Shown in pieces: positions 1 to 47,626 of a stretch of 64,000 nucleotides of DNA. Under the pieces are notes generated by a model. It was not told where the DNA came from, ran no database searches, and saw nothing but the letters and a program-made list of their open reading frames with translations. Where the stretch lies: assembly GCA_043771175.1 (NCBI GenBank), contig JAYVHO010000008.1, positions 5,124-69,123 on the forward strand, given 5' to 3'. The DNA is from a bacterium (GTDB taxonomy: Bacteria; Patescibacteriota; Minisyncoccia; Phycocordibacterales; UBA1006). The translations under genes and the position numbers were made by a program. Numbering within the stretch: position 1 is the stretch's first letter; each line of letters starts with the position of its first letter.

Positions 1-2629
1 TAATAACACCGCTACCGGATATTACTCATTATCGTCAAACACCACTGGTTTTAGTAACAGTGCGTATGGATTAGAATCACTTAAAAACAATACGACTGGT
101 TATCAAAACACTGCAGCAGGCAGGGACGCGCTTTATAGTAATACAACTGGAGATAGTAATAATGCTAGTGGATTTAGGGCTTTATACTCAAATACTTCTG
201 GAATAGCAAATAATGTATTAGGAATCGAATCCTTCTATTCAAATACAACCGGAGGACAAAACACAGGACTTGGTTCATTTTCTGGTTATGATTCAATTTC
301 TGGCTCAAAAAATACATTTCTTGGTTATAATTCAGGGCGTGGTATTACCACAGGAGGATCAAATACTATCATTGGTGCTAATGTTACTGGCTTGAATGCT
401 GCACTTGCAAACAACATCATCATTGCAGATGGTGATGGAAATCAGAGAATAAATATAGATGCTAGCGGTCATACAACGCTTAAACGAACAGGAATAAACG
501 GTGCTGGTTCTGCTTCAATACTAAACTTAACATCAGACGGTGCTACTATAAATGATTCAGCACGTCTTACTTTTTCCGCAAGAGATTCATCAGCAAATAA
601 TCAAACTTACGGTGCAATTGATGCACTCATCGTAGACCCAACAGCAGGAAGTGAAGACTCAAGTTTAGTATTCTATAACTTCAATGCTGGAGTAGAATCA
701 GAAGTTATGAGATTATCAAATACTGGTAATGTTGGAATTGGTATGACGTCACTATTAAACAAACTTGGCGTGGCAGGTGGTATAAGTTTTACTGGTGAAT
801 TACGAGAGAATTCTCTCTCAAATAAGCTAATCATAGCTGCTGGATCTGGGATTGGAACAGAAATACACGCAGGTGATGCAACAGGTATTATCTTCAAAGA
901 TGCCGGTAACAATGAAAAAATGAGAATGCTCGCAAATGGAAATATAGGAATTGGAACTATTGTACCTGATGTGTTTAGTCGTGGATACACCGGTAAGATT
1001 GTTGGTATTTCATCTACTGGGCAATCAGCTCTTTCAGTAAATAGTGCAACGGGTTCAAATGCCTATCTTGATTTAGGAGTAAATAATACATACATTGGAG
1101 GTATTCAAGCGAGCTCATCAACACTTGAGGTTGGTACAAGTTCTGTAAATCCACTATTGTTTAGCACAAATGGTGTTGAAAAAATGAGAATACTTTCAAG
1201 TGGAAATATAGGAATTGGAACTTCGGCACCAACTACTAGTTTGCACGTTATTAAAAGTGCTGTAACATCTCAAAACGTACTAAATCTTGAAACATCTGGA
1301 GTAAACGGTAGACCATTCTTAAACTTCAGAGCAGAAGGTAGTGACTATGGTTACATTGGTTATGGTTCAACTGGGGCTGACACAATGCACTTGGTAAATT
1401 ATAAAAATTCAAATTTGCAGTTTGGAACAAATTCTTTAGTACGGATGACTATTGATTCTTCAGGATATCTTGGAGTTGGAAATACAAACCCTCTTCAACT
1501 TCTTGATATTAAAGGTGCAGCTGCATCAGCAGTATACGAAGGATTTGTCGTGCGAGACGCTACTTCAGAACAAGTTCGTATAGGTTATAAATCAGGTAGC
1601 CCTACCGCTGGGCTCGCTTCTACTCAAATACTAAATACTAACCTTGGAGGAGGTGACTATGAAACAATGATTGCTGCACCAAGCCTAGGGGGGTATAGTA
1701 ATATGTCATTTAGAACTTCAGGTGCAGGAGGAGGTAGTTTACAAGAAGTTATGAAGATTACTGGTGAAACCGGAACCGTGTCTATAACTAACGCAGGTGT
1801 TGATTCGACAGGTATTCCGCTCGACGTAATAACAACCGCTACAACAGCTGCAAGATTTACTAATAATGTTGGTAACTGTACTATTAACCCAACAACAACT
1901 TCTCTTTCTTGTTCATCTGATATTCGTTTGAAAAAAAATATTACCAACATGCGCGACAATACTCCATTTAACTTAAACACTGCGTTAAATGAACATAACC
2001 AAACAGTGCTACAGAAGATCGAAGGTCTTACTCCTGTGACATATAATTGGAATTCAGAATCAAATGGTGCAACAAAACATTCAGGATTTATTGCACAAGA
2101 AGTTGAGCAATTGTTCCCAGATTTAGTTGCCACTGACCCAGTAACTGGTCTTAAATCAGTAAACTATATGGGATTTGCTCCCTATGTGGTAGAGGCTATT
2201 TCATCTATTACTAATATTTCTGATTCATTCAAAACAAATTTAGTAGCGTGGCTTGCAAATGTGAATAATGGAATTGATACCGTGATTGCCAATACCTTTA
2301 AAGCAAAGAATATTGAAACCAAAGCAATTACGATTAATCCTGATGATAAAACAAAATCAGGTATCACCATTTATGACCGCGTGACGGGACAGCCAGTGTG
2401 TATGTTTGTTGCAAATGGAACCACCACCACAGAGCAAGGCGTATGTGGAGAAGTTCCATCAACTCAAACTATTATCCCACCACCAGCACCTGTACCAGAG
2501 CCAACCCCAGATCCAGCACCAGAAGAAAATCCAGAAATTATCCCACCAGCAGCAGATCAATTACCTCCTGTGCCAGATCCCATACCAGAACCTCCCGTAA
2601 CCGACCCAGCTCCAGAAATAACTCTATAA
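1..2629 (+). CDS. Large repeat-rich surface / tail-fibre-like protein with a C-terminal intramolecular-chaperone (peptidase S74-like) domain and a Pro-rich tail; 5' end lies outside the window
   Basis: Frame 2 is open from base 2. N/G/T-rich ~14-aa repeats. Four 'MR(I/M)L..GN(I/V)GIGT' units. Motif 'SSDIRLKKNI...HSGFIAQEVEQLFPDLV...VNYMGF'. Tail 'PPPAPVPEPTPDPAPEE...'. Confidence 0.8.
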   Translation, partial: NNTATGYYSLSSNTTGFSNSAYGLESLKNNTTGYQNTAAGRDALYSNTTGDSNNASGFRALYSNTSGIANNVLGIESFYSNTTGGQNTGLGSFSGYDSISGSKNTFLGYNSGRGITTGGSNTIIGANVTGLNAALANNIIIADGDGNQRINIDASGHTTLKRTGINGAGSASILNLTSDGATINDSARLTFSARDSSANNQTYGAIDALIVDPTAGSEDSSLVFYNFNAGVESEVMRLSNTGNVGIGMTSLLNKLGVAGGISFTGELRENSLSNKLIIAAGSGIGTEIHAGDATGIIFKDAGNNEKMRMLANGNIGIGTIVPDVFSRGYTGKIVGISSTGQSALSVNSATGSNAYLDLGVNNTYIGGIQASSSTLEVGTSSVNPLLFSTNGVEKMRILSSGNIGIGTSAPTTSLHVIKSAVTSQNVLNLETSGVNGRPFLNFRAEGSDYGYIGYGSTGADTMHLVNYKNSNLQFGTNSLVRMTIDSSGYLGVGNTNPLQLLDIKGAAASAVYEGFVVRDATSEQVRIGYKSGSPTAGLASTQILNTNLGGGDYETMIAAPSLGGYSNMSFRTSGAGGGSLQEVMKITGETGTVSITNAGVDSTGIPLDVITTATTAARFTNNVGNCTINPTTTSLSCSSDIRLKKNITNMRDNTPFNLNTALNEHNQTVLQKIEGLTPVTYNWNSESNGATKHSGFIAQEVEQLFPDLVATDPVTGLKSVNYMGFAPYVVEAISSITNISDSFKTNLVAWLANVNNGIDTVIANTFKAKNIETKAITINPDDKTKSGITIYDRVTGQPVCMFVANGTTTTEQGVCGEVPSTQTIIPPPAPVPEPTPDPAPEENPEIIPPAADQLPPVPDPIPEPPVTDPAPEITL

Positions 2630-2680: not shown

Positions 2681-2760
2681 TCCGTCATCCCGCAACTGCC
2701 AGTGGTTATCTCAATGTTTTTTCCATCATCCCGTTGAACAACGGGAACCAGGCGGCTAAC
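2681..2760 (+). repeat. GTCATCCCG mosaic repeat, locus A (one linear 40-nt unit plus one hairpin unit)
   Basis: tccgtcatcccgcaactgccagtggttatctcaatgtttt followed by ttccatcatcccgttgaacaacgggaaccaggcggc; related copies at five other loci. Confidence 0.85.
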
Positions 2761-2817: not shown

Positions 2818-3144
2818 ATGAAAGATTTTGATGCGTGGAATATAATCAAAAAAAAGTATGATGAAAAAGATAGAGAAATAATCAAAGTATTTTGTCATGA
2901 GCGAGAGATTTGGTGGATTTCATTAGGGTTGAATATAGGTGATGAAGAAGATGGTAAAGGAGCTTTGTTTGAAAGACCAATATTAGTTATAAAAAAATTT
3001 AACAATAATATATTTTGGGGATGTTCACTTTCAACAAAAATTAAAGACCAAAATAAATACTATCATAAGATTGATACTAAGGAAGGAATTCGATCGGTAA
3101 TAATTTCTCAGTTGCGATTGTATGATACTAAGAGAAAAATTTGA
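2818..3144 (+). CDS. PemK/MazF-family toxin-like protein; the C-terminus appears frameshifted
   Basis: 'REIWWISLGLNIGDEEDGKGALFERPILVIKKFN...FWGCSLSTK...SQLRLYDTKR' resembles MazF/PemK-fold proteins. The missing C-terminal helix reads in the +1 frame (3143-3199). Confidence 0.6.
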   Translation: MKDFDAWNIIKKKYDEKDREIIKVFCHEREIWWISLGLNIGDEEDGKGALFERPILVIKKFNNNIFWGCSLSTKIKDQNKYYHKIDTKEGIRSVIISQLRLYDTKRKI

Positions 3145-3335
3145 TACAATAGAAATTGAAAAATTTAAGCAAATAAAAACAGCAATTAAAAAATTACTGT
3201 AATCATTTTCCCCGGCAGATTGCTCTGCTGAAAACCCGAAGGCATTTGTACTAATTATGTTACCAAATAAAAATAGATTGTCAATAAAAAACTTAATCTC
3301 TGTAAAAAATACTATAATTTTTTTAATTATTACCA

Positions 3336-3470
3336 TTCGTCATCCCGCAATTGCCATTTGTTACCTCACTATTTTTGCGTCATTCCTATGTTGCTTTTGT
3401 TATCTCAATATTGTTTCCGTCATTCAACTGTTGTTTACGTCATCTCGCTTTTCAGCGGGATGACGGACAT
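3336..3470 (+). repeat. GTCATCCCG mosaic repeat, locus B (four tandem degenerate units ending in an 11-bp hairpin)
   Basis: Units start at 3336, 3377, 3416 and 3437. The last is cgtcatctcgc-ttttca-gcgggatgacg. The ORF-track MurG N-terminal extension merely translates these repeats. Confidence 0.85.
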
Positions 3471-3479
3471 GAGACCAAA

Positions 3480-3488
3480 TGCTATAAT
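3480..3488 (+). promoter_or_regulatory. Extended -10 box (tgctataat), 6 nt upstream of the murG ATG
   Basis: TGcTATAAT at 3480-3488; ATG at 3495. Confidence 0.6.
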
Positions 3489-3494
3489 ATTCCT

Positions 3495-4625
3495 ATGAAA
3501 ATAGCGTATACAGGCGGAGGCACGGGCGGACATATGTACCCAATTATTGCGGTGAATGAAGAATTGTTAGACGTATATGAAACAGGGAAGTTTGTTGATC
3601 AAGGTATTTATTTTTTTTCAAACTCTCCGTATGATAAATTTTTGCTCCAGAAAAATTTTATAGAATATGTACATATACCAGCAGGTAAGTTACGCCTTTA
3701 TCCATCATTTCAAAATTTTATTGATATCTTTAAAACATTATATGGAATTATTATTGCATCAATTCGTTTATATGCAATTATGCCTGATGTAGTATTTGGA
3801 AAGGGTGGATACGCCAGTTTTCCAACGGTGTTTGCAGCGTGGATGTTAGGAATTCCTGTAGTGATTCATGAATCAGATGTAGCACCAGGACGTTCAAATT
3901 CTTTATGTGCAAAGTTTGCTACGTTTGTTTGCACTTCATATGCAGAAGCATTTGAATATTTTGATAATAAAGAAATTTTGATACATACCGGGCAGCCAAT
4001 GAGGCGCGCGCTGCAAGCGCGCGCCTCAGAAGAATTTGCATATGAAGGAGTAGATAGAAACAAAAAAACTCTTTTAGTTATTGGAGGCAGTCAAGGTGCC
4101 GCTTTATTTAATGACTTAGTTGCAGGGTTAGCGCCAGAGCTCTTAGAAACACATAATATTTTACATATTACGGGAACAAAAAATTATGAAGCTCAAAAAA
4201 AATTAATGGATTCACTATTGGCAAATAATCCTTACAAAAGTTCCTATATTATTTTTGATTATGTTGATGAGGTAATGTTTAAAAAACTGGCGTCTGCTGC
4301 AGATGCTGCATTAACGCGGGCCGGATCAACACTCTTTGAACTTGCATGTATGGAACTTCCTTGTATTGTAGTGCCATTTACGGTTTCAAATCGTGATCAT
4401 GCAAGAAAAAATGCGTTTGCATTTGCAGCTACTGGTGCGGGGATTGTAATAGAAGAATCAAATTTGTCTACGCAAATATTTCTTAAGGAATTATATGAAA
4501 TTGAAACAGATATACGGTATAAACAATCTGCACAAACATTTCCGTCATTAAAACTCCACCGACATGCTGCTAAAACTATTGCAGATTTACTTATAACCGT
4601 TGCCAAAGAACATTATAAAGAATAA
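3495..4625 (+). CDS. murG: UDP-N-acetylglucosamine--N-acetylmuramyl-(pentapeptide) pyrophosphoryl-undecaprenol GlcNAc transferase (MurG)
   Basis: 'MKIAYTGGGTGGHMYPIIAV', 'LLVIGGSQGA', 'TRAGSTLFEL'. Start moved to 3495 (repeats upstream, -10 box). Confidence 0.9.
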   Translation: MKIAYTGGGTGGHMYPIIAVNEELLDVYETGKFVDQGIYFFSNSPYDKFLLQKNFIEYVHIPAGKLRLYPSFQNFIDIFKTLYGIIIASIRLYAIMPDVVFGKGGYASFPTVFAAWMLGIPVVIHESDVAPGRSNSLCAKFATFVCTSYAEAFEYFDNKEILIHTGQPMRRALQARASEEFAYEGVDRNKKTLLVIGGSQGAALFNDLVAGLAPELLETHNILHITGTKNYEAQKKLMDSLLANNPYKSSYIIFDYVDEVMFKKLASAADAALTRAGSTLFELACMELPCIVVPFTVSNRDHARKNAFAFAATGAGIVIEESNLSTQIFLKELYEIETDIRYKQSAQTFPSLKLHRHAAKTIADLLITVAKEHYKE

Positions 4626-5910: not shown

Positions 5911-6037
5911 TTTTTGTCATTTCGCTACGATCGTTTGTTATTCCGCTGTACTTCTTCCGTCATCTCGCTGAAAAGCGGGATCTAGGGCGGAAAGATAGAC
6001 ACAAACTGGATACCGTTATACAACGGTATGACGGATA
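5911..6037. repeat. GTCATCCCG mosaic repeat, locus C (one linear unit plus a head-to-head pair of hairpin units)
   Basis: ttccgtcatctcgctgaaaagcgggatctagg (forward) and ctggataccgttatacaacggtatgacgga (reverse). Confidence 0.85.
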
Positions 6038-6038
6038 G

Positions 6039-8408: not shown

Positions 8409-9563
8409 ATGTCATCACTGTATAAAGACGCAATTTATTGGATAGAAGTTGATCAAATTGAACCAAACCCGTTTCAACCGCGAAAAGAATTTGACGAATC
8501 AGCACTGCTTGATTTGGCTGATTCAATACGTCAATATGGGATTTTGCAGCCGCTGGTGGTTACTCGGGTTGAAGATATAAATCCAGAAGGAGGCATGAAT
8601 GTTCATTATGAACTCATTGCGGGAGAACGCAGATTGCGTGCTTCAAAATTAGCAGGACTGTATCAAGTTCCCGTAATTATTAGAAAAAATGAAGACAACA
8701 AAGCAAAATTTGAACTTGCTATTATAGAAAATCTTCAACGAGAAGACTTAAATGCTATTGATCGTGCAATTGCATTTGAACGTCTTACCTCTGAGTTTGG
8801 TTTGACTCATGCACAAGTAGGAAAGAGAATGGGAAAGTCTCGTGAATATGTTTCAAATACGTTGCGGCTTTTAATGCTTCCCGAAGAAATCAGACAAGCA
8901 GTTTCATCAAGAAGGCTTCCTGAAGGGCACTGTAGGCCGCTGTTAATGCTCCATGGACGTACAGAAGAACAAATGACGTTGTATCATGAAATCGTTATTA
9001 AAAAACTCACCGTGCGTGATGCAGAAAAAATAGCTCGCGGAATTGCGGTTGAACGCGTTCGTATGAGTTCTCCTGTTCCAAGAGATTTAAATCTTGAAAA
9101 ACGTGAACAAGAAGTTTCAAAAAGAATTGGTGCACGCGTTACGGTAGAAAAACATCGCGGACAAGGTGGACGGTTAAGTATAGAAGTTATGTCAGAAGAA
9201 GATATTGAACAAATTATGAAAGCCTTAGAATCATTAGGGACATTACCTGGTGCAGAGCTTCTTAAAAACCAACTTTCAGATTCTTTAGATGGATTCAATA
9301 GGCGTCAAATGAGTTTAGGAGGAGATGCCTTTAAAAGTGCAGCACCCGTTGTTACGCCAGAGCCAGAAGTTGTTGAAGAACCAAAAAAAGAAATTAACTA
9401 TGATGATTTTTCTTATGCTGATGAAGGGGATTATTCCGTGTTTGGAGGGTCAGTTTTGGAAACTCCACCAGATGCATCTGACTTTGGATCATATGCAACA
9501 CAAACTCCGGTGGCGGATAAAAAAGAAGATGATGAAGACCCAACGATTACGTTTTCAGTTTAG
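8409..9563 (+). CDS. parB: ParB/Spo0J family partition protein with a long acidic C-terminal extension
   Basis: 'GILQPLVV', 'ELIAGERRLRASKLAG', HTH 'THAQVGKRMGKSREYVSNTLRLL'. No parA adjacent. Confidence 0.85.
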   Translation: MSSLYKDAIYWIEVDQIEPNPFQPRKEFDESALLDLADSIRQYGILQPLVVTRVEDINPEGGMNVHYELIAGERRLRASKLAGLYQVPVIIRKNEDNKAKFELAIIENLQREDLNAIDRAIAFERLTSEFGLTHAQVGKRMGKSREYVSNTLRLLMLPEEIRQAVSSRRLPEGHCRPLLMLHGRTEEQMTLYHEIVIKKLTVRDAEKIARGIAVERVRMSSPVPRDLNLEKREQEVSKRIGARVTVEKHRGQGGRLSIEVMSEEDIEQIMKALESLGTLPGAELLKNQLSDSLDGFNRRQMSLGGDAFKSAAPVVTPEPEVVEEPKKEINYDDFSYADEGDYSVFGGSVLETPPDASDFGSYATQTPVADKKEDDEDPTITFSV

Positions 9564-9600
9564 TCCGTCATCCCGTTGAAGAACGGGATCCAGGCTGCTT
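9563..9600 (+). repeat. GTCATCCCG repeat, locus D (single hairpin unit)
   Basis: gtccgtcatcccgttgaagaacgggatccaggctgc, directly abutting the parB TAG stop. Confidence 0.85.
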
Positions 9601-9602
9601 AT

Positions 9603-10160
9603 ATGCACAAAAATTTCCAAATAAAAAATTCAAATATTTCGTATTCGGTAATTCCAAGCGAAAAAGCAAAAAAAGTTTCCATTCATATTAGTGGAGACTT
9701 TTTGGTTTCCGTTAGAAAACCAAAGCATATTACTTATATTCAACTGCAAGATTTGATGAGCAAAAATATTCAAGTAGTAACAAAACTTTTAGAAAAAGCT
9801 CGCAAGCGTCCACAAATTAAACTTGAAACAACACATGAGGAATATAAAAAAACAAAAGATGACGTCCATGAATTTTTCAGATATCATGTTGAAAGAGAAA
9901 ATATGTATTATAATTTTGTCTATGAAAATATTTCTATCAAGAAACAAAAAACAAGATGGGGAAGTTGTTCCAGTAATAAATCACTTTCACTTAATTTTAA
10001 TATTTCAAAACTACCACTCCATTTAATGAGATATGTGATTGTTCATGAGTTGTGTCATTTAAAAGAAATGAATCACTCAAAAAGATTTTGGGATTTAGTT
10101 GCCATAGCTGACCCGGACTACAAACTCCATAATAAAGAACTTAAAAATTATCTTCCATAA
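9603..10160 (+). CDS. YgjP-like (DUF45) HExxH metallopeptidase
   Basis: 'YVIVHELCHLKEMNHSKRFW'. Start moved to ATG 9603 because the ORF-track start lies inside the repeat. Confidence 0.7.
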   Translation: MHKNFQIKNSNISYSVIPSEKAKKVSIHISGDFLVSVRKPKHITYIQLQDLMSKNIQVVTKLLEKARKRPQIKLETTHEEYKKTKDDVHEFFRYHVERENMYYNFVYENISIKKQKTRWGSCSSNKSLSLNFNISKLPLHLMRYVIVHELCHLKEMNHSKRFWDLVAIADPDYKLHNKELKNYLP

Positions 10161-14266: not shown

Positions 14267-14291
14267 AAAAACAGCAGAAATGCTGTTTTTT
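14267..14291 (+). terminator. Rho-independent terminator inside the pilin-like array
   Basis: aaaaacagca-gaaa-tgctgtttttt. The same RNA-sense sequence recurs after tRNA-Gln (47601-47626). Confidence 0.75.
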
Positions 14292-20570: not shown

Positions 20571-20729
20571 TTATTTTTTTGAAACCTTTTTAGTTGCTTT
20601 TTTAACTGCTTTCTTTACTGCTTTTTTAGGAGCGACTTTTTTAACAGCCTTTTTAACAACTTTCTTTACTGCTTTTTTAATTGCTTTTTTAGGAGCAACT
20701 TTTTTAACAGCCTTTTTTGCGATAGCCAT
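20571..20729 (-). CDS. 52-aa lysine/alanine-rich, histone-H1-like basic protein (not in the ORF track)
   Basis: Hand translation: MAIAKKAVKKVAPKKAIKKAVKKVVKKAVKKVAPKKAVKKAVKKATKKVSKK*. ATG start, TAA stop, internal ~63-nt DNA duplication. Confidence 0.65.
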   Translation of the reverse strand: MAIAKKAVKKVAPKKAIKKAVKKVVKKAVKKVAPKKAVKKAVKKATKKVSKK

Positions 20730-26769: not shown

Positions 26770-27477
26770 CTAAACAGGAGAAACAGTAATGACAAATTCT
26801 CCTTTTGGAGTGTTATTTTTGAATTCTTGTAATAGTTGTTCTTTAATCTCAATAGGTGTTCCCACATAAACAGTTTCAAACATTTTGGTAAGCTCTCTTC
26901 CGATAACCAAGGTACAAGAAAGCTTTGCGCAGTCATCAAGTAGCTTTATGATTCCATAGGGGCTTTCATATATAATAATGTGATATTCAAATTCTGTTAG
27001 TAGTGTTTCTATTTTTTTAAGTATGGTTTGGCGCCCTTTTTTCTTGGGTAGGAATCCCATAAATACTACTGGCTGTTCTCCAATGATGCCAGAAATTGAC
27101 ATCTGCGCAGCAAGTGCAGAAACACCCGGGATTGGTTCAATGGTTGCATCTGGTGCCATTTTGCGCGTGAAATTAACCAAAAATCCTCCTGGATCAGATA
27201 CTCCTGGAGTTCCCGCATCAGAAATATATGAAACATGTTCCCCTTTTTGTAGGCGTCCCACAATTTCATCAAAAACTTTTCTATCAGAATACTCATGACA
27301 TGAATGACACGATGTGGTGATATCAAAATGCATTAATAATTTTTTACTATTGCGTGTATCTTCTGCAAAAATAACATCACAGGTTTTAAGAGTTTCTATC
27401 CCTCGTGGAGTCATGTCTCCTAAATTTCCAATAGGTGTTGCAACAATTGAAAGTTTTCCGTTTTTATTCATGGTCAT
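26770..27477 (-). CDS. rsmI: 16S rRNA (cytidine1402-2'-O)-methyltransferase RsmI
   Basis: 'LSIVATPIGNLGDMTPRGIETLKTCDVIFAEDTR', 'GTPGVSDPG'. tgattatat box (rc of 27486-27494). Confidence 0.85.
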   Translation of the reverse strand: MTMNKNGKLSIVATPIGNLGDMTPRGIETLKTCDVIFAEDTRNSKKLLMHFDITTSCHSCHEYSDRKVFDEIVGRLQKGEHVSYISDAGTPGVSDPGGFLVNFTRKMAPDATIEPIPGVSALAAQMSISGIIGEQPVVFMGFLPKKKGRQTILKKIETLLTEFEYHIIIYESPYGIIKLLDDCAKLSCTLVIGRELTKMFETVYVGTPIEIKEQLLQEFKNNTPKGEFVITVSPV

Positions 27478-27519
27478 ATAATACGATATAATCAGATTAT
27501 TGTAAATAATTACGAGATC

Positions 27520-27528
27520 TGATATAAT
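27520..27528 (+). promoter_or_regulatory. Extended -10 (tgatataat), 10 nt upstream of ATG 27539
   Basis: TGaTATAAT consensus. Confidence 0.55.
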
Positions 27529-27538
27529 CTCGAAACTT

Positions 27539-28018
27539 ATGTCAATATTCACAAAAATTTCTGCATGGTACGAACGAACGTACAAAATCCAAATTGGAAT
27601 TGCAGCCGTTCTTTTTATACTTCAACTTGGTCATCTTATTTGGTTGTTTGGTGAAGTACTGTGGCTTAAACTGTTTGGATATCAATTATTTACCGTTTCT
27701 GATAGTTTCCAAAAACTTCTGATTGCGTTTGATTATACAGAAATTCCAGCAATCATAACTTCTTCACTTATATATATCCACGAATATCGCAAACATAAAA
27801 AATTTAAAGATATTCTCTACTTTTTCTTTATTGTCATTCAACTTCTTCACATCTTTTGGATTACTGACGAATTTGTTATCAACACCACCACCCAAGCAGG
27901 AACCATTCTTCCGTCTTGGCTTGCCATTGTTGCTATTGTAATTGATTATCTTGAACTTCCCGTTATGTTTGAGACATGCAAGAAATTCTTTGTTGAGCTT
28001 AAAAAATCAAGAACGTAA
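27539..28018 (+). CDS. Hypothetical integral membrane protein
   Basis: 159 aa with about 4 TM helices; promoter and terminator flank it. Confidence 0.5.
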   Translation: MSIFTKISAWYERTYKIQIGIAAVLFILQLGHLIWLFGEVLWLKLFGYQLFTVSDSFQKLLIAFDYTEIPAIITSSLIYIHEYRKHKKFKDILYFFFIVIQLLHIFWITDEFVINTTTQAGTILPSWLAIVAIVIDYLELPVMFETCKKFFVELKKSRT

Positions 28019-29174: not shown

Positions 29175-29223
29175 GCTTTCAATAATAGCAACTAAGGTTC
29201 TAAATGTCAAATAGTATATCTTC

Positions 29224-29285
29224 CTTTTGTCATCCCGCCACTAGCGGGATCCAGCTGGACTGCGCTTGTGACGCAGTGACGGACA
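29224..29285. repeat. GTCATCCCG repeat, locus E (head-to-head pair)
   Basis: ttgtcatcccgccactagcgggatccagc followed by ctggactgcgcttgtgacgcagtgacggac. Confidence 0.8.
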
Positions 29286-29293
29286 TTGTTTTG

Positions 29294-47502: not shown

Positions 47503-47600
47503 AGATGTCTATTATACCTTTCTATATCAAGACAACAATATATTATGACTTTTTATTCCCCTTTAAAGAACGGGAATAGTTCTTGTATCTTTACTCATAA

Positions 47601-47626
47601 AAAAACAGCATTTCTGCTGTTTTTTT
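47601..47626 (-). terminator. Terminator after tRNA-Gln
   Basis: The reverse complement equals the 14267-14291 terminator (acagca-gaaa-tgctgt plus U-run). Confidence 0.75.

Follow-up and report, generated by a model that had tools for sequence, protein, structure and literature searches.

The window considered here is a stretch of 64,000 nucleotides from a Patescibacteria (candidate phyla radiation, CPR) genome and is part of a 197-kb metagenome scaffold (ENA ERZ28573538, scaffold_21). Beyond the window, the scaffold was also read for 7.7 kb on one side and for 7.2 kb on the other, the latter lying entirely within a giant gene. Relatives of the ParB protein encoded in the window carry the names Pacebacteria, Nomurabacteria, and Campbellbacteria. 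The subject of this report is a set of short palindromic repeats that lie between the genes of the window and that probably belong to the family of the Ssn-related motif (SRM), which also takes in the Neisseria Transformation Sequence (NTS)/dRS3-type repeat of Neisseria. The genes that flank them are a giant gene for a Peptidase_S74/tail-fibre-like protein, a PemK-like open reading frame (ORF), murG, and genes for an M23 peptidase, a methyltransferase, and an ABC transporter, followed by parB, a ygjP-like gene, MYG1, and rpsP. An initial annotation, made by reading the sequence, had named the flanking genes in the same way, and a Pfam scan agrees with it.

The repeats were located with a covariance model built from 23 aligned units, taken from the window, from the same scaffold, and from other CPR-like contigs. 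With filters off, the model returned exactly eight significant matches across the whole window (E 7e-11 to 2e-5), and the next best match had an E value of 0.09. A structural scan for a head, a hairpin of at least 5 bp, and a CYAG tail found six units, where 0.27 were expected from 100 dinucleotide shuffles, none of which gave more than two. The bare 10-mer CGTCATCCCG, with two mismatches allowed, had 22 matches in the window against 12.5 expected and is not significant alone; the signal of the family therefore resides in the full head–hairpin–tail unit. The initial annotation had counted six loci, and five of these are confirmed by the covariance model. The sixth, a supposed degenerate copy at about 47552-47580, is not a demonstrable member, as it has neither head nor tail and goes undetected by the model even at an E value of 10. 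The hairpin units of the annotation's consensus are real, but the consensus missed the heads-out inverted pairs at 5953-6038 and 29223-29286 and the double-headed element at 3432-3471. From left to right, the full units (lettered) and the half units that lack a right arm (numbered L1 to L5) are as follows.

2681-2720 (+), half unit L1: head and left arm TCCGTCATCCCGC, continuing as AACTGCCAGTGGTTATCTCAATGTTTT; no right arm.
2719-2757 (+), unit B: hairpin unit upstream of the PemK-like gene; 39.4 bits, E 8e-9; also found by the structural scan.
3336-3435 (+), tandem array of half units: L2 (3336-3375), L3 (3376-3415), and a truncated L4 (3416-3435).
3432-3471 (both strands), unit E: double-headed palindrome; 35.6 and 27.6 bits.
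5911-5954 (+), half unit L5: degenerate head TTTTGTCATTTCGC, no right arm; directly 3' of the M23 peptidase stop (5907).
5953-5991 (+), unit C+: left half of a heads-out inverted pair; 39.6 bits.
6000-6038 (-), unit C-: right half of the same pair; 44.1 bits, E 3.7e-10.
9561-9599 (+), unit A: single hairpin unit; 46.6 bits, E 6.9e-11.
29223-29260 (+), unit D+: left half of a heads-out inverted pair; 34.9 bits.
29249-29286 (-), unit D-: right half of the same pair; 30.6 bits, E 2.7e-6.

Each full unit is about 36–39 nt long and oriented, with a T-rich lead-in, a (C)CGTCAT head, a hairpin of 7–9 bp, and an ATCCAG(G) tail whose first C directly abuts the palindrome. Unit A, which reads tagTCCGTCAT-CCCGTT-gaag-AACGGG-ATCCAGGCTGCT, occupies the 39 nt that separate the parB stop (9563) from the start of the ygjP-like gene (9603) and folds as single-stranded DNA (ssDNA) into an 8-bp stem (-7.6 kcal/mol, z -2.66). 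Unit B, a member of repeat family D2, is slightly degenerate (head CCATCAT, tail AACCAGG). The C pair spans 86 nt between two convergent genes, the M23 peptidase gene on the plus strand and the methyltransferase gene on the minus strand; on the minus strand C- reads TCCGTCAT-ACCGTT-gtat-AACGGT-ATCCAG and comes to within 2 nt of the methyltransferase stop. The D pair spans 64 nt and separates the MYG1 stop from the rpsP start, both genes being on the minus strand, and the tails of its two units overlap in CCAGCTGG. Neither pair encloses a gene. Unit E is a double-headed palindrome (3436-3467; aCGTCATCTCGC-ttttca-GCGGGATGACGGa) with an SRM head on each strand and no ATCCAG tail, and an ssDNA fold of 3333-3470 gives it a 12-bp stem (z -3.2). 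Across the units, ssDNA folds give stems of 7–12 bp.

The head and the tail are almost invariant in the 23-unit alignment, and the stem between them drifts in sequence while still pairing. GTCA is conserved at 90% or more; the head is CGTCAT in A, C+, C-, E+, and E-, TGTCAT in D+, CGTCAC in D-, and CATCAT in B. In the window, the C after the palindrome and the RNCYNB tail (ATCCAG) are shared by A, B, C+, C-, D+, and D- and missing from E. Stems include CCCGTT/AACGGG, CTCGCT/AGCGGG, CCCGC/GCGGG, CTGCG/CGCAG, ACCGTT/AACGGT, and TCCCGC/GCGGGA. The CTGCG/CGCAG stem belongs to D-, which keeps the head and tail arrangement of its partner D+ and adds compensatory pairs to the covariation analysis. 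Over all 23 units, 95.7% of the stem cells are paired, both sides have changed in six of the eight pairs, the covariation score was not reached in any of 500 shuffles, and sliding the 3' partners drops pairing to 24–52%. These compensatory changes show that the hairpin is under selection.

The repeats occupy the gaps between genes: all eight units of the window and both of two further units found on the same scaffold outside it are intergenic. In a 20-kb stretch (L262) for which a gene table was made, 906 nt are intergenic (4.5%), and 708 of these fall within four gaps that carry units. One of the two extra units is at dnaJ, and the other lies antisense between grpE and dnaK. Neither a lack of further copies nor random placement, the outcomes named beforehand as speaking against a family, was thus found. 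Independent assemblies from other sequencing runs hold the units in the interior of their contigs, which excludes an assembly artefact. The species is also present in the metagenomes SRR14689442, SRR23617300, and SRR22198263. The annotation's description of dispersed, oriented, hairpin-forming intergenic repeats that build mosaics, in the manner of repetitive extragenic palindromic (REP) sequences and bacterial interspersed mosaic elements (BIMEs), is supported. The identity of the family is another matter.

Chenal et al. (Nat Commun 2025; PMC11893778) describe the 28-nt NTS as CGTCATTCCCGCGMAVGCGGGAATCYRG and define the degenerate SRM. According to PMC11893778, SsnA is a 94-amino-acid, single-domain GIY-YIG nuclease that binds the motif solely as ssDNA and not as duplex, RNA, or reverse strand, and cleaves a few nucleotides upstream of it. 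Binding depends most on the C that follows the palindrome, and cleavage depends most on the three nucleotides before it. The ssn genes are often flanked by the motif, with an architecture like that of an insertion sequence (IS) on which the authors remark; they raise mobility as an untested idea (PMC11893778). In N. meningitidis the system lowers transformation by NTS-carrying DNA, only 2% of NTS copies there are inside genes, and in Neisseria NTS copies cluster beside genes for membrane and surface proteins (PMC11893778). In the same paper, ssn is present in only 81% of the genomes with more than 200 SRMs, and orphan sets of the motif exist. The introduction to PMC11893778 also mentions a specific phage recombinase that has dRS3 as its target.

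Unit A can be written as CGTCAT-CCCGTTGAAGAACGGG-ATCCAG, with its head, tail, post-palindrome C, and loop size all as in the NTS. The published SRM search expression, HGTCWYN(0-2)YYVSBRHN(0-5)WNVSBRGN(0-2)RNCYNB, is matched exactly by two of the eight units, C+ (at 5958) and D+ (at 29228), where shuffled sequence gives 0.04 expected matches. The same design is widespread. Scans were made of one genome per species and of metagenomes; their counts are lower bounds and their taxa are not a random sample. In the genome scan, the pattern CCGTCATCYCG-N6-12-CGGGATCYAG occurs at more than 119 loci in Proteobacteria, Binatia, Elusimicrobia, Dehalococcoidia, and other groups. The listed genome matches carry hairpins of the CCGTCATCCCGGCGAAGGCCGGGATCCAG type, often as inverted pairs. 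The variant with the low-GC stem that forms the core of A and B (TCATCCCGTT-N3-6-AACGGGAWCCAG; 26 nt in A, with the loop left free) is found on at least 120 metagenome contigs whose GC content runs from 0.30 to 0.64. The family is neither new nor specific to CPR bacteria; its description, from Neisseria and many other bacteria, dates from 2025.

The link between this motif and an Ssn nuclease is also seen among CPR bacteria. Of the 120 metagenome matches listed, 21 loci encode an Ssn-like GIY-YIG protein, and the five such proteins that were scanned are all single-domain PF01541. Homologs 68–77% identical to one of them bear the NCBI names Taylorbacteria, Paceibacterota, Parcubacteria, Moranbacteria, Saccharibacteria, and Patescibacteria. 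An ssn gene bracketed heads-out by SRMs is present in several contigs (L190, L260/L261, L257, L253/L255 from Saccharibacteria, and L250 from Paceibacterota) that have CPR-like gene content or an Ssn to which NCBI gives the name of a CPR lineage; the Ssn proteins of L190 and L260 have 94 amino acids. In L260/L261 the SRM-flanked ssn is inside the dcw cluster, between a penicillin-binding protein gene and a Mur ligase gene, and the units of L250 agree with the NTS consensus of Neisseria at 27 of 28 positions. Pairs that face heads-out and enclose no gene, like C and D, are common in other contigs too.

Other nucleases and transposases were seen on some of the contigs. An 82-amino-acid GIY-YIG protein with only weak similarity to the Ssn queries (E about 1e-5) is encoded at 2268-2516 of L160 and 261-509 of L166, two low-GC contigs that also carry SRM units. 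Genes for Y1_Tnp (HUH) proteins occur 3–9 kb from ssn in two CPR contigs (L252, 12720-13433; L253, 18779-19417), and in L253 an IS1595 DDE transposase gene adjoins ssn.

Several points weigh against assigning the repeats of the window to the SRM family. The SRM expression is missed by six of the eight units, whose AT-richer stems of the CCCGTT type have T where R or S is required; they differ from it nowhere else. Some copies are degenerate: the head of B is CATCAT, E lacks the 3' C that matters most for binding, and the half units are unable to fold. The nuclease gene itself was not found in the 73 kb made up of the window and the adjoining scaffold sequence (L001, L247), where a hidden Markov model (HMM) of 118 Ssn sequences run with --max had a best E value of 1.1, phmmer found nothing either, and the sole match to a GIY-YIG motif expression was UvrC. 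The closest Ssn clusters (P0123, P0127) came from samples other than that of this scaffold. Either a cognate ssn lies elsewhere in the genome or it is missing, and the units are then orphan copies. With these points taken into account, we consider it likely that the repeats are SRM copies in a Patescibacteria genome.

The closest relative fetched (L243) has a ParB 80% identical to that of the window and is syntenic over 18.7 kb, with the gene order mraY-ftsW-murG-gltX-M23-methyltransferase-ABC-parB-ygjP-relA. Neither the structural scan nor the covariance model finds a unit in this 18.7-kb locus. Three gaps that are filled in the window are empty there.

parB/ygjP junction: the genes overlap in the relative (TAATG); in the window a 39-nt gap is filled by unit A.
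M23/methyltransferase junction: 28 nt with an A/T-flanked inverted repeat in the relative, 131 nt with L5 and the C pair in the window.
Upstream of murG: ftsW at 45 nt in the relative; the giant gene, the PemK-like cassette, and two arrays in the window.

We read the A/T-flanked inverted repeat of the relative as a putative bidirectional terminator. Given the three empty sites, the units were either inserted in the lineage of the window or lost from that of the relative, and recently.

From published biochemistry in Neisseria and Wolbachia we infer how such units may work here, from folding as ssDNA in vivo and cleavage by Ssn to an effect on DNA uptake or recombination and a mode of spread. 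When DNA becomes single-stranded, for example during replication, repair, or the uptake of transforming DNA, a unit would fold into its hairpin. A single-domain GIY-YIG Ssn (cd10448) of about 94 amino acids would then bind the hairpin together with the 3' C and cut that strand alone, a few nucleotides 5' of the head. By analogy, cutting would restrict or modulate the recombination of DNA that carries the site and may also drive the spread of the element.

How the units spread is the point at which a comparison with miniature inverted-repeat transposable elements (MITEs) suggests itself. Here, pairs and singles would be nonautonomous derivatives of an IS-like SRM-ssn-SRM module, moved in trans by Ssn, and this is compatible with the identification as SRM copies because it adds only a claim about spread. 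Genes for ssn are bracketed heads-out by SRMs, including the one within the conserved dcw cluster; pairs C and D share that geometry without the gene, as do the pairs common in other contigs; the sites are empty in the relative; and the IS-like architecture was noted in PMC11893778. Set against this, no Ssn has been shown to transpose, and a nuclease of about 94 amino acids has no evident strand-transfer activity. No target-site duplication or exact junction can be read, since the intergenic DNA of the relative is too diverged, and loss in the relative could account for the empty sites instead of gain in the lineage of the window. This origin is a possibility, though the balance is tipped against it. 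The broader proposal, that Ssn-type GIY-YIG nucleases drive an ssDNA-based mobility whose MITE-like offspring are these heads-out pairs and singles, is more speculative still. In a weaker variant, the genome has no ssn and its units are orphans, acquired or acted on in trans. Small-genome Patescibacteria are thought to rely on DNA uptake, and the orphan variant fits such organisms.

The resemblance to BIMEs had led the initial annotation to look toward a RAYT (REP-associated tyrosine transposase), a Y1 enzyme of the HUH class, as a possible partner. Short oriented palindromes, inverted pairs, and mosaics are indeed what REPs made and moved by a RAYT would look like, and Y1_Tnp genes do lie near ssn in the two CPR contigs mentioned above. 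REPs typically carry a head tetranucleotide of the GTAG type. The head here is instead of the (C)CGTCAT type, and the units agree base by base with the SRM/NTS motif, a published hairpin whose partner is the GIY-YIG protein Ssn. The annotation was right that the window has no RAYT or other Y1 transposase: two Y1_Tnp proteins compared by phmmer with the ORFs of the same 73 kb found no relative (best E 0.73). At the loci fetched, it is GIY-YIG genes that have the units at their flanks. A RAYT-like partner is very improbable. We give hardly any credence to the units being attachment or target sites of a site-specific recombinase or an IS110-type element, for which the precedent is the phage recombinase that targets dRS3 in Neisseria (PMC11893778). 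Neither the window ORFs that were inspected nor Pfam searches of the ten flanking genes suggested a recombinase, prophage, or IS at or near the units; the strict dRS3 motif is absent from the window; and the units are small, complete, and numerous and are not split by inserts.

The hairpins might instead act mainly at the level of RNA, as transcription terminators or as stabilizers of mRNA 3' ends. Most units lie 0–10 nt after a stop codon in the orientation of the upstream gene, two stems place T opposite G, which RNA would tolerate as a U-G wobble, and the relative has its A/T-flanked inverted repeat where the window has the C pair. The details fit poorly with such a role. No unit is followed by a T-run (the tails read ATCCAGGC...), and a terminator scan flags none of them, while canonical terminators made of a hairpin and a T-run adjoin the units, after the dnaJ unit and before L1/B. 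One unit is antisense upstream of dnaK, and unit A is inside the tight parB-ygjP junction, where termination would harm. No Rfam family matches at the units, and the published SsnA does not bind the RNA form (PMC11893778). A primary role in RNA is thus unlikely, and a side effect of the units on RNA is possible.

In the window, only three tRNAs reach the Rfam gathering threshold and none of them overlaps a unit; at E values up to 10 the sole overlap is mir-205 at 3408-3476, with 17.6 bits against a gathering score of 55. Other identities were tried and set aside. A hammerhead-like three-way junction at C and D lacks the CUGAUGA core and has nothing relevant in Rfam, the apparent junctions being two inverted units. 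A tRNA-derived or att-site origin was dropped, the three tRNAs of the window being ordinary and none of them at a unit, and no R''/R' core sites of an integron attC were seen on reading the sequence.

Interspersed with the full units are the linear units of about 40 nt. They had been described as a second type and are real, with 85% identity between L1 and L2 over 39 nt (repeat family D10) and a 40-nt period that Tandem Repeats Finder detects over 3357-3446 (about two copies, 76–81% matches). Aligned to the hairpin units, they keep the head and left arm and then show a 16-nt gap that corresponds to the loop, right arm, and tail, resuming at CTGC/TTGC in a way that resembles the sequence 3' of unit A. 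They are half units, unable to fold, and L1 scores only 8.9 bits with the covariance model. Our guess is that they arose as deletion derivatives and were then duplicated in tandem. No match to a linear unit was found in any other locus fetched for comparison.

The relation of the repeats to gene ends is looser than was first proposed. That every copy directly follows a stop codon is true of A, L5/C+, C-, and D-, all within 0–10 nt of a stop, and of the copy at dnaJ. It does not hold for L1/B, 52 nt downstream and past a terminator-like hairpin, or for the array from L2 to E, where L2 begins 190 nt after the stop of the PemK-like ORF, and it fails again for the antisense grpE/dnaK copy. Likewise, false N-terminal extensions of genes do arise with naive longest-ORF calling, as had been predicted, but in the public calls for the contig murG begins at 3495 and the ygjP-like gene begins at 9603. 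The units also leave a mark on assemblies. Two independent short-read contigs from other runs, L002 and L003, begin or stop exactly within units C- and A (...CGGGATCCA), L002 at window positions 6006 and 9592 and L003 at its 3' end, probably because many organisms of one sample share the same 26-mer.

The giant Peptidase_S74/tail-fibre-like protein has 3408 amino acids (window 1-2629, continuing upstream), and its gene ends just before the first repeat array. In the Parcubacteria contig L252 (1-10288) a giant protein of more than 3348 amino acids is followed directly by an ssn gene. By analogy, the adjacency to giant surface proteins in both places may reflect the same tendency as the clustering of NTS copies in Neisseria.

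The PemK/MazF-like ORF (2818-3144, +) encodes 108 amino acids and is bracketed heads-out by unit B on the plus strand and the minus-strand head of E, which makes an SRM-gene-SRM cassette. Its Pfam match to PemK_toxin (E 2.9e-4) is below the cut-off, its 1753 representative relatives are mostly about 130 amino acids long, and a sequence search of the PDB gave no meaningful match. The missing C-terminal helix (REKFDTIEIEKFKQIKTAIKKLL, then a stop) lies in another frame at 3131-3202, which points to an apparent frameshift in the A-run near 3134-3138. The same 108-amino-acid product appears in independent assemblies, and no antitoxin gene is adjacent.

At the other edge of this cassette, the minus-strand head of unit E (ATGACG) resembles a -35 hexamer 17 nt upstream of TGcTATAAT (3483-3488; region 3460-3495), which lies 6 nt upstream of the murG start codon (ATG at 3495). 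The relative shares the TATAAT with a different upstream sequence, and unit E may have taken the place of the -35 region in the murG promoter.

Features unrelated to the units were also seen. The 25-nt sequence AAAAACAGCAGAAATGCTGTTTTTT is present at 14267-14291 and, in opposite orientation, at 47600-47624, with arms that are 100% complementary, and looks like one bidirectional terminator used twice. At 20574-20711, repeats at 12-nt spacing form five overlapping 63-nt copies rich in TTTTTTAAC/AGC, and the minus strand here could code for a repeat protein rich in Lys and Ala. The cumulative GC skew climbs to about 27 kb and then falls steadily, and the listed ORFs are mostly on the plus strand at the left end, with the minus strand prevailing from about 28 kb onward and also at the right end. 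The switch at about 27000-28000 could be a terminus-like change in replication or an effect of the coding strand.

The analysis extends a nuclease–hairpin system to Patescibacteria and could have a bearing on the handling of incoming DNA by CPR bacteria. Comparisons with empty sites lend circumstantial support to the mobility raised in PMC11893778; if that mobility is real, the three gaps filled in one genome and empty in the other, together with the ssn inserted in the dcw cluster, could make its mechanism testable. For annotation, the units are best masked or labeled as SRM/NTS-type repeats and not as a new CPR family, given that they can mislead naive ORF callers and that they break short-read assemblies.

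Among known systems, the units share with REPs and BIMEs the form of oriented, imperfect palindromes that act as ssDNA hairpins, the inverted pairs, the mosaics, the intergenic location, and a small nuclease gene flanked by copies, while the head sequence differs and the partner is a GIY-YIG and not a HUH/Y1 protein. Like MITEs, pairs C and D are short, carry no gene, and have inverted repeats at their ends, and a relative has empty sites in their place. The singles and half units do not have the shape of a MITE, and there is neither a visible target-site duplication nor a known transposase. In the Neisserial intergenic mosaic elements (NIMEs), the interspersed units are RS blocks of 50–150 bp, whereas the interspersed elements here are 40-nt half units that bear a head. 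The strict dRS3 sequence ATTCCC-N8-GGGAAT is missing from the window, where three matches at two mismatches (2.1 expected) all lie away from the units. Shared with dRS3 and NIMEs, as these are described in PMC11893778, are a short AT(T)CCC-N8-GGG(A)AT palindrome and intergenic mosaic arrays near genes for surface proteins. Relative to the NTS/SRM system, the differences are AT-richer stems (CCCGTT/AACGGG) that mostly fall outside the published expression, the lack of an ssn within the 73 kb searched, arrays of half units without a right arm, which the available text of PMC11893778 does not mention, and a CPR host, which its main text does not mention. What the units have in common with the NTS and SRM is the CGTCAT head, the hairpin of 7–9 bp with its loop of 4–5 nt, the C after the palindrome, and the ATCCAG tail, as well as a strictly intergenic location, clustering by a giant surface-protein gene, and a frequent arrangement as inverted pairs.

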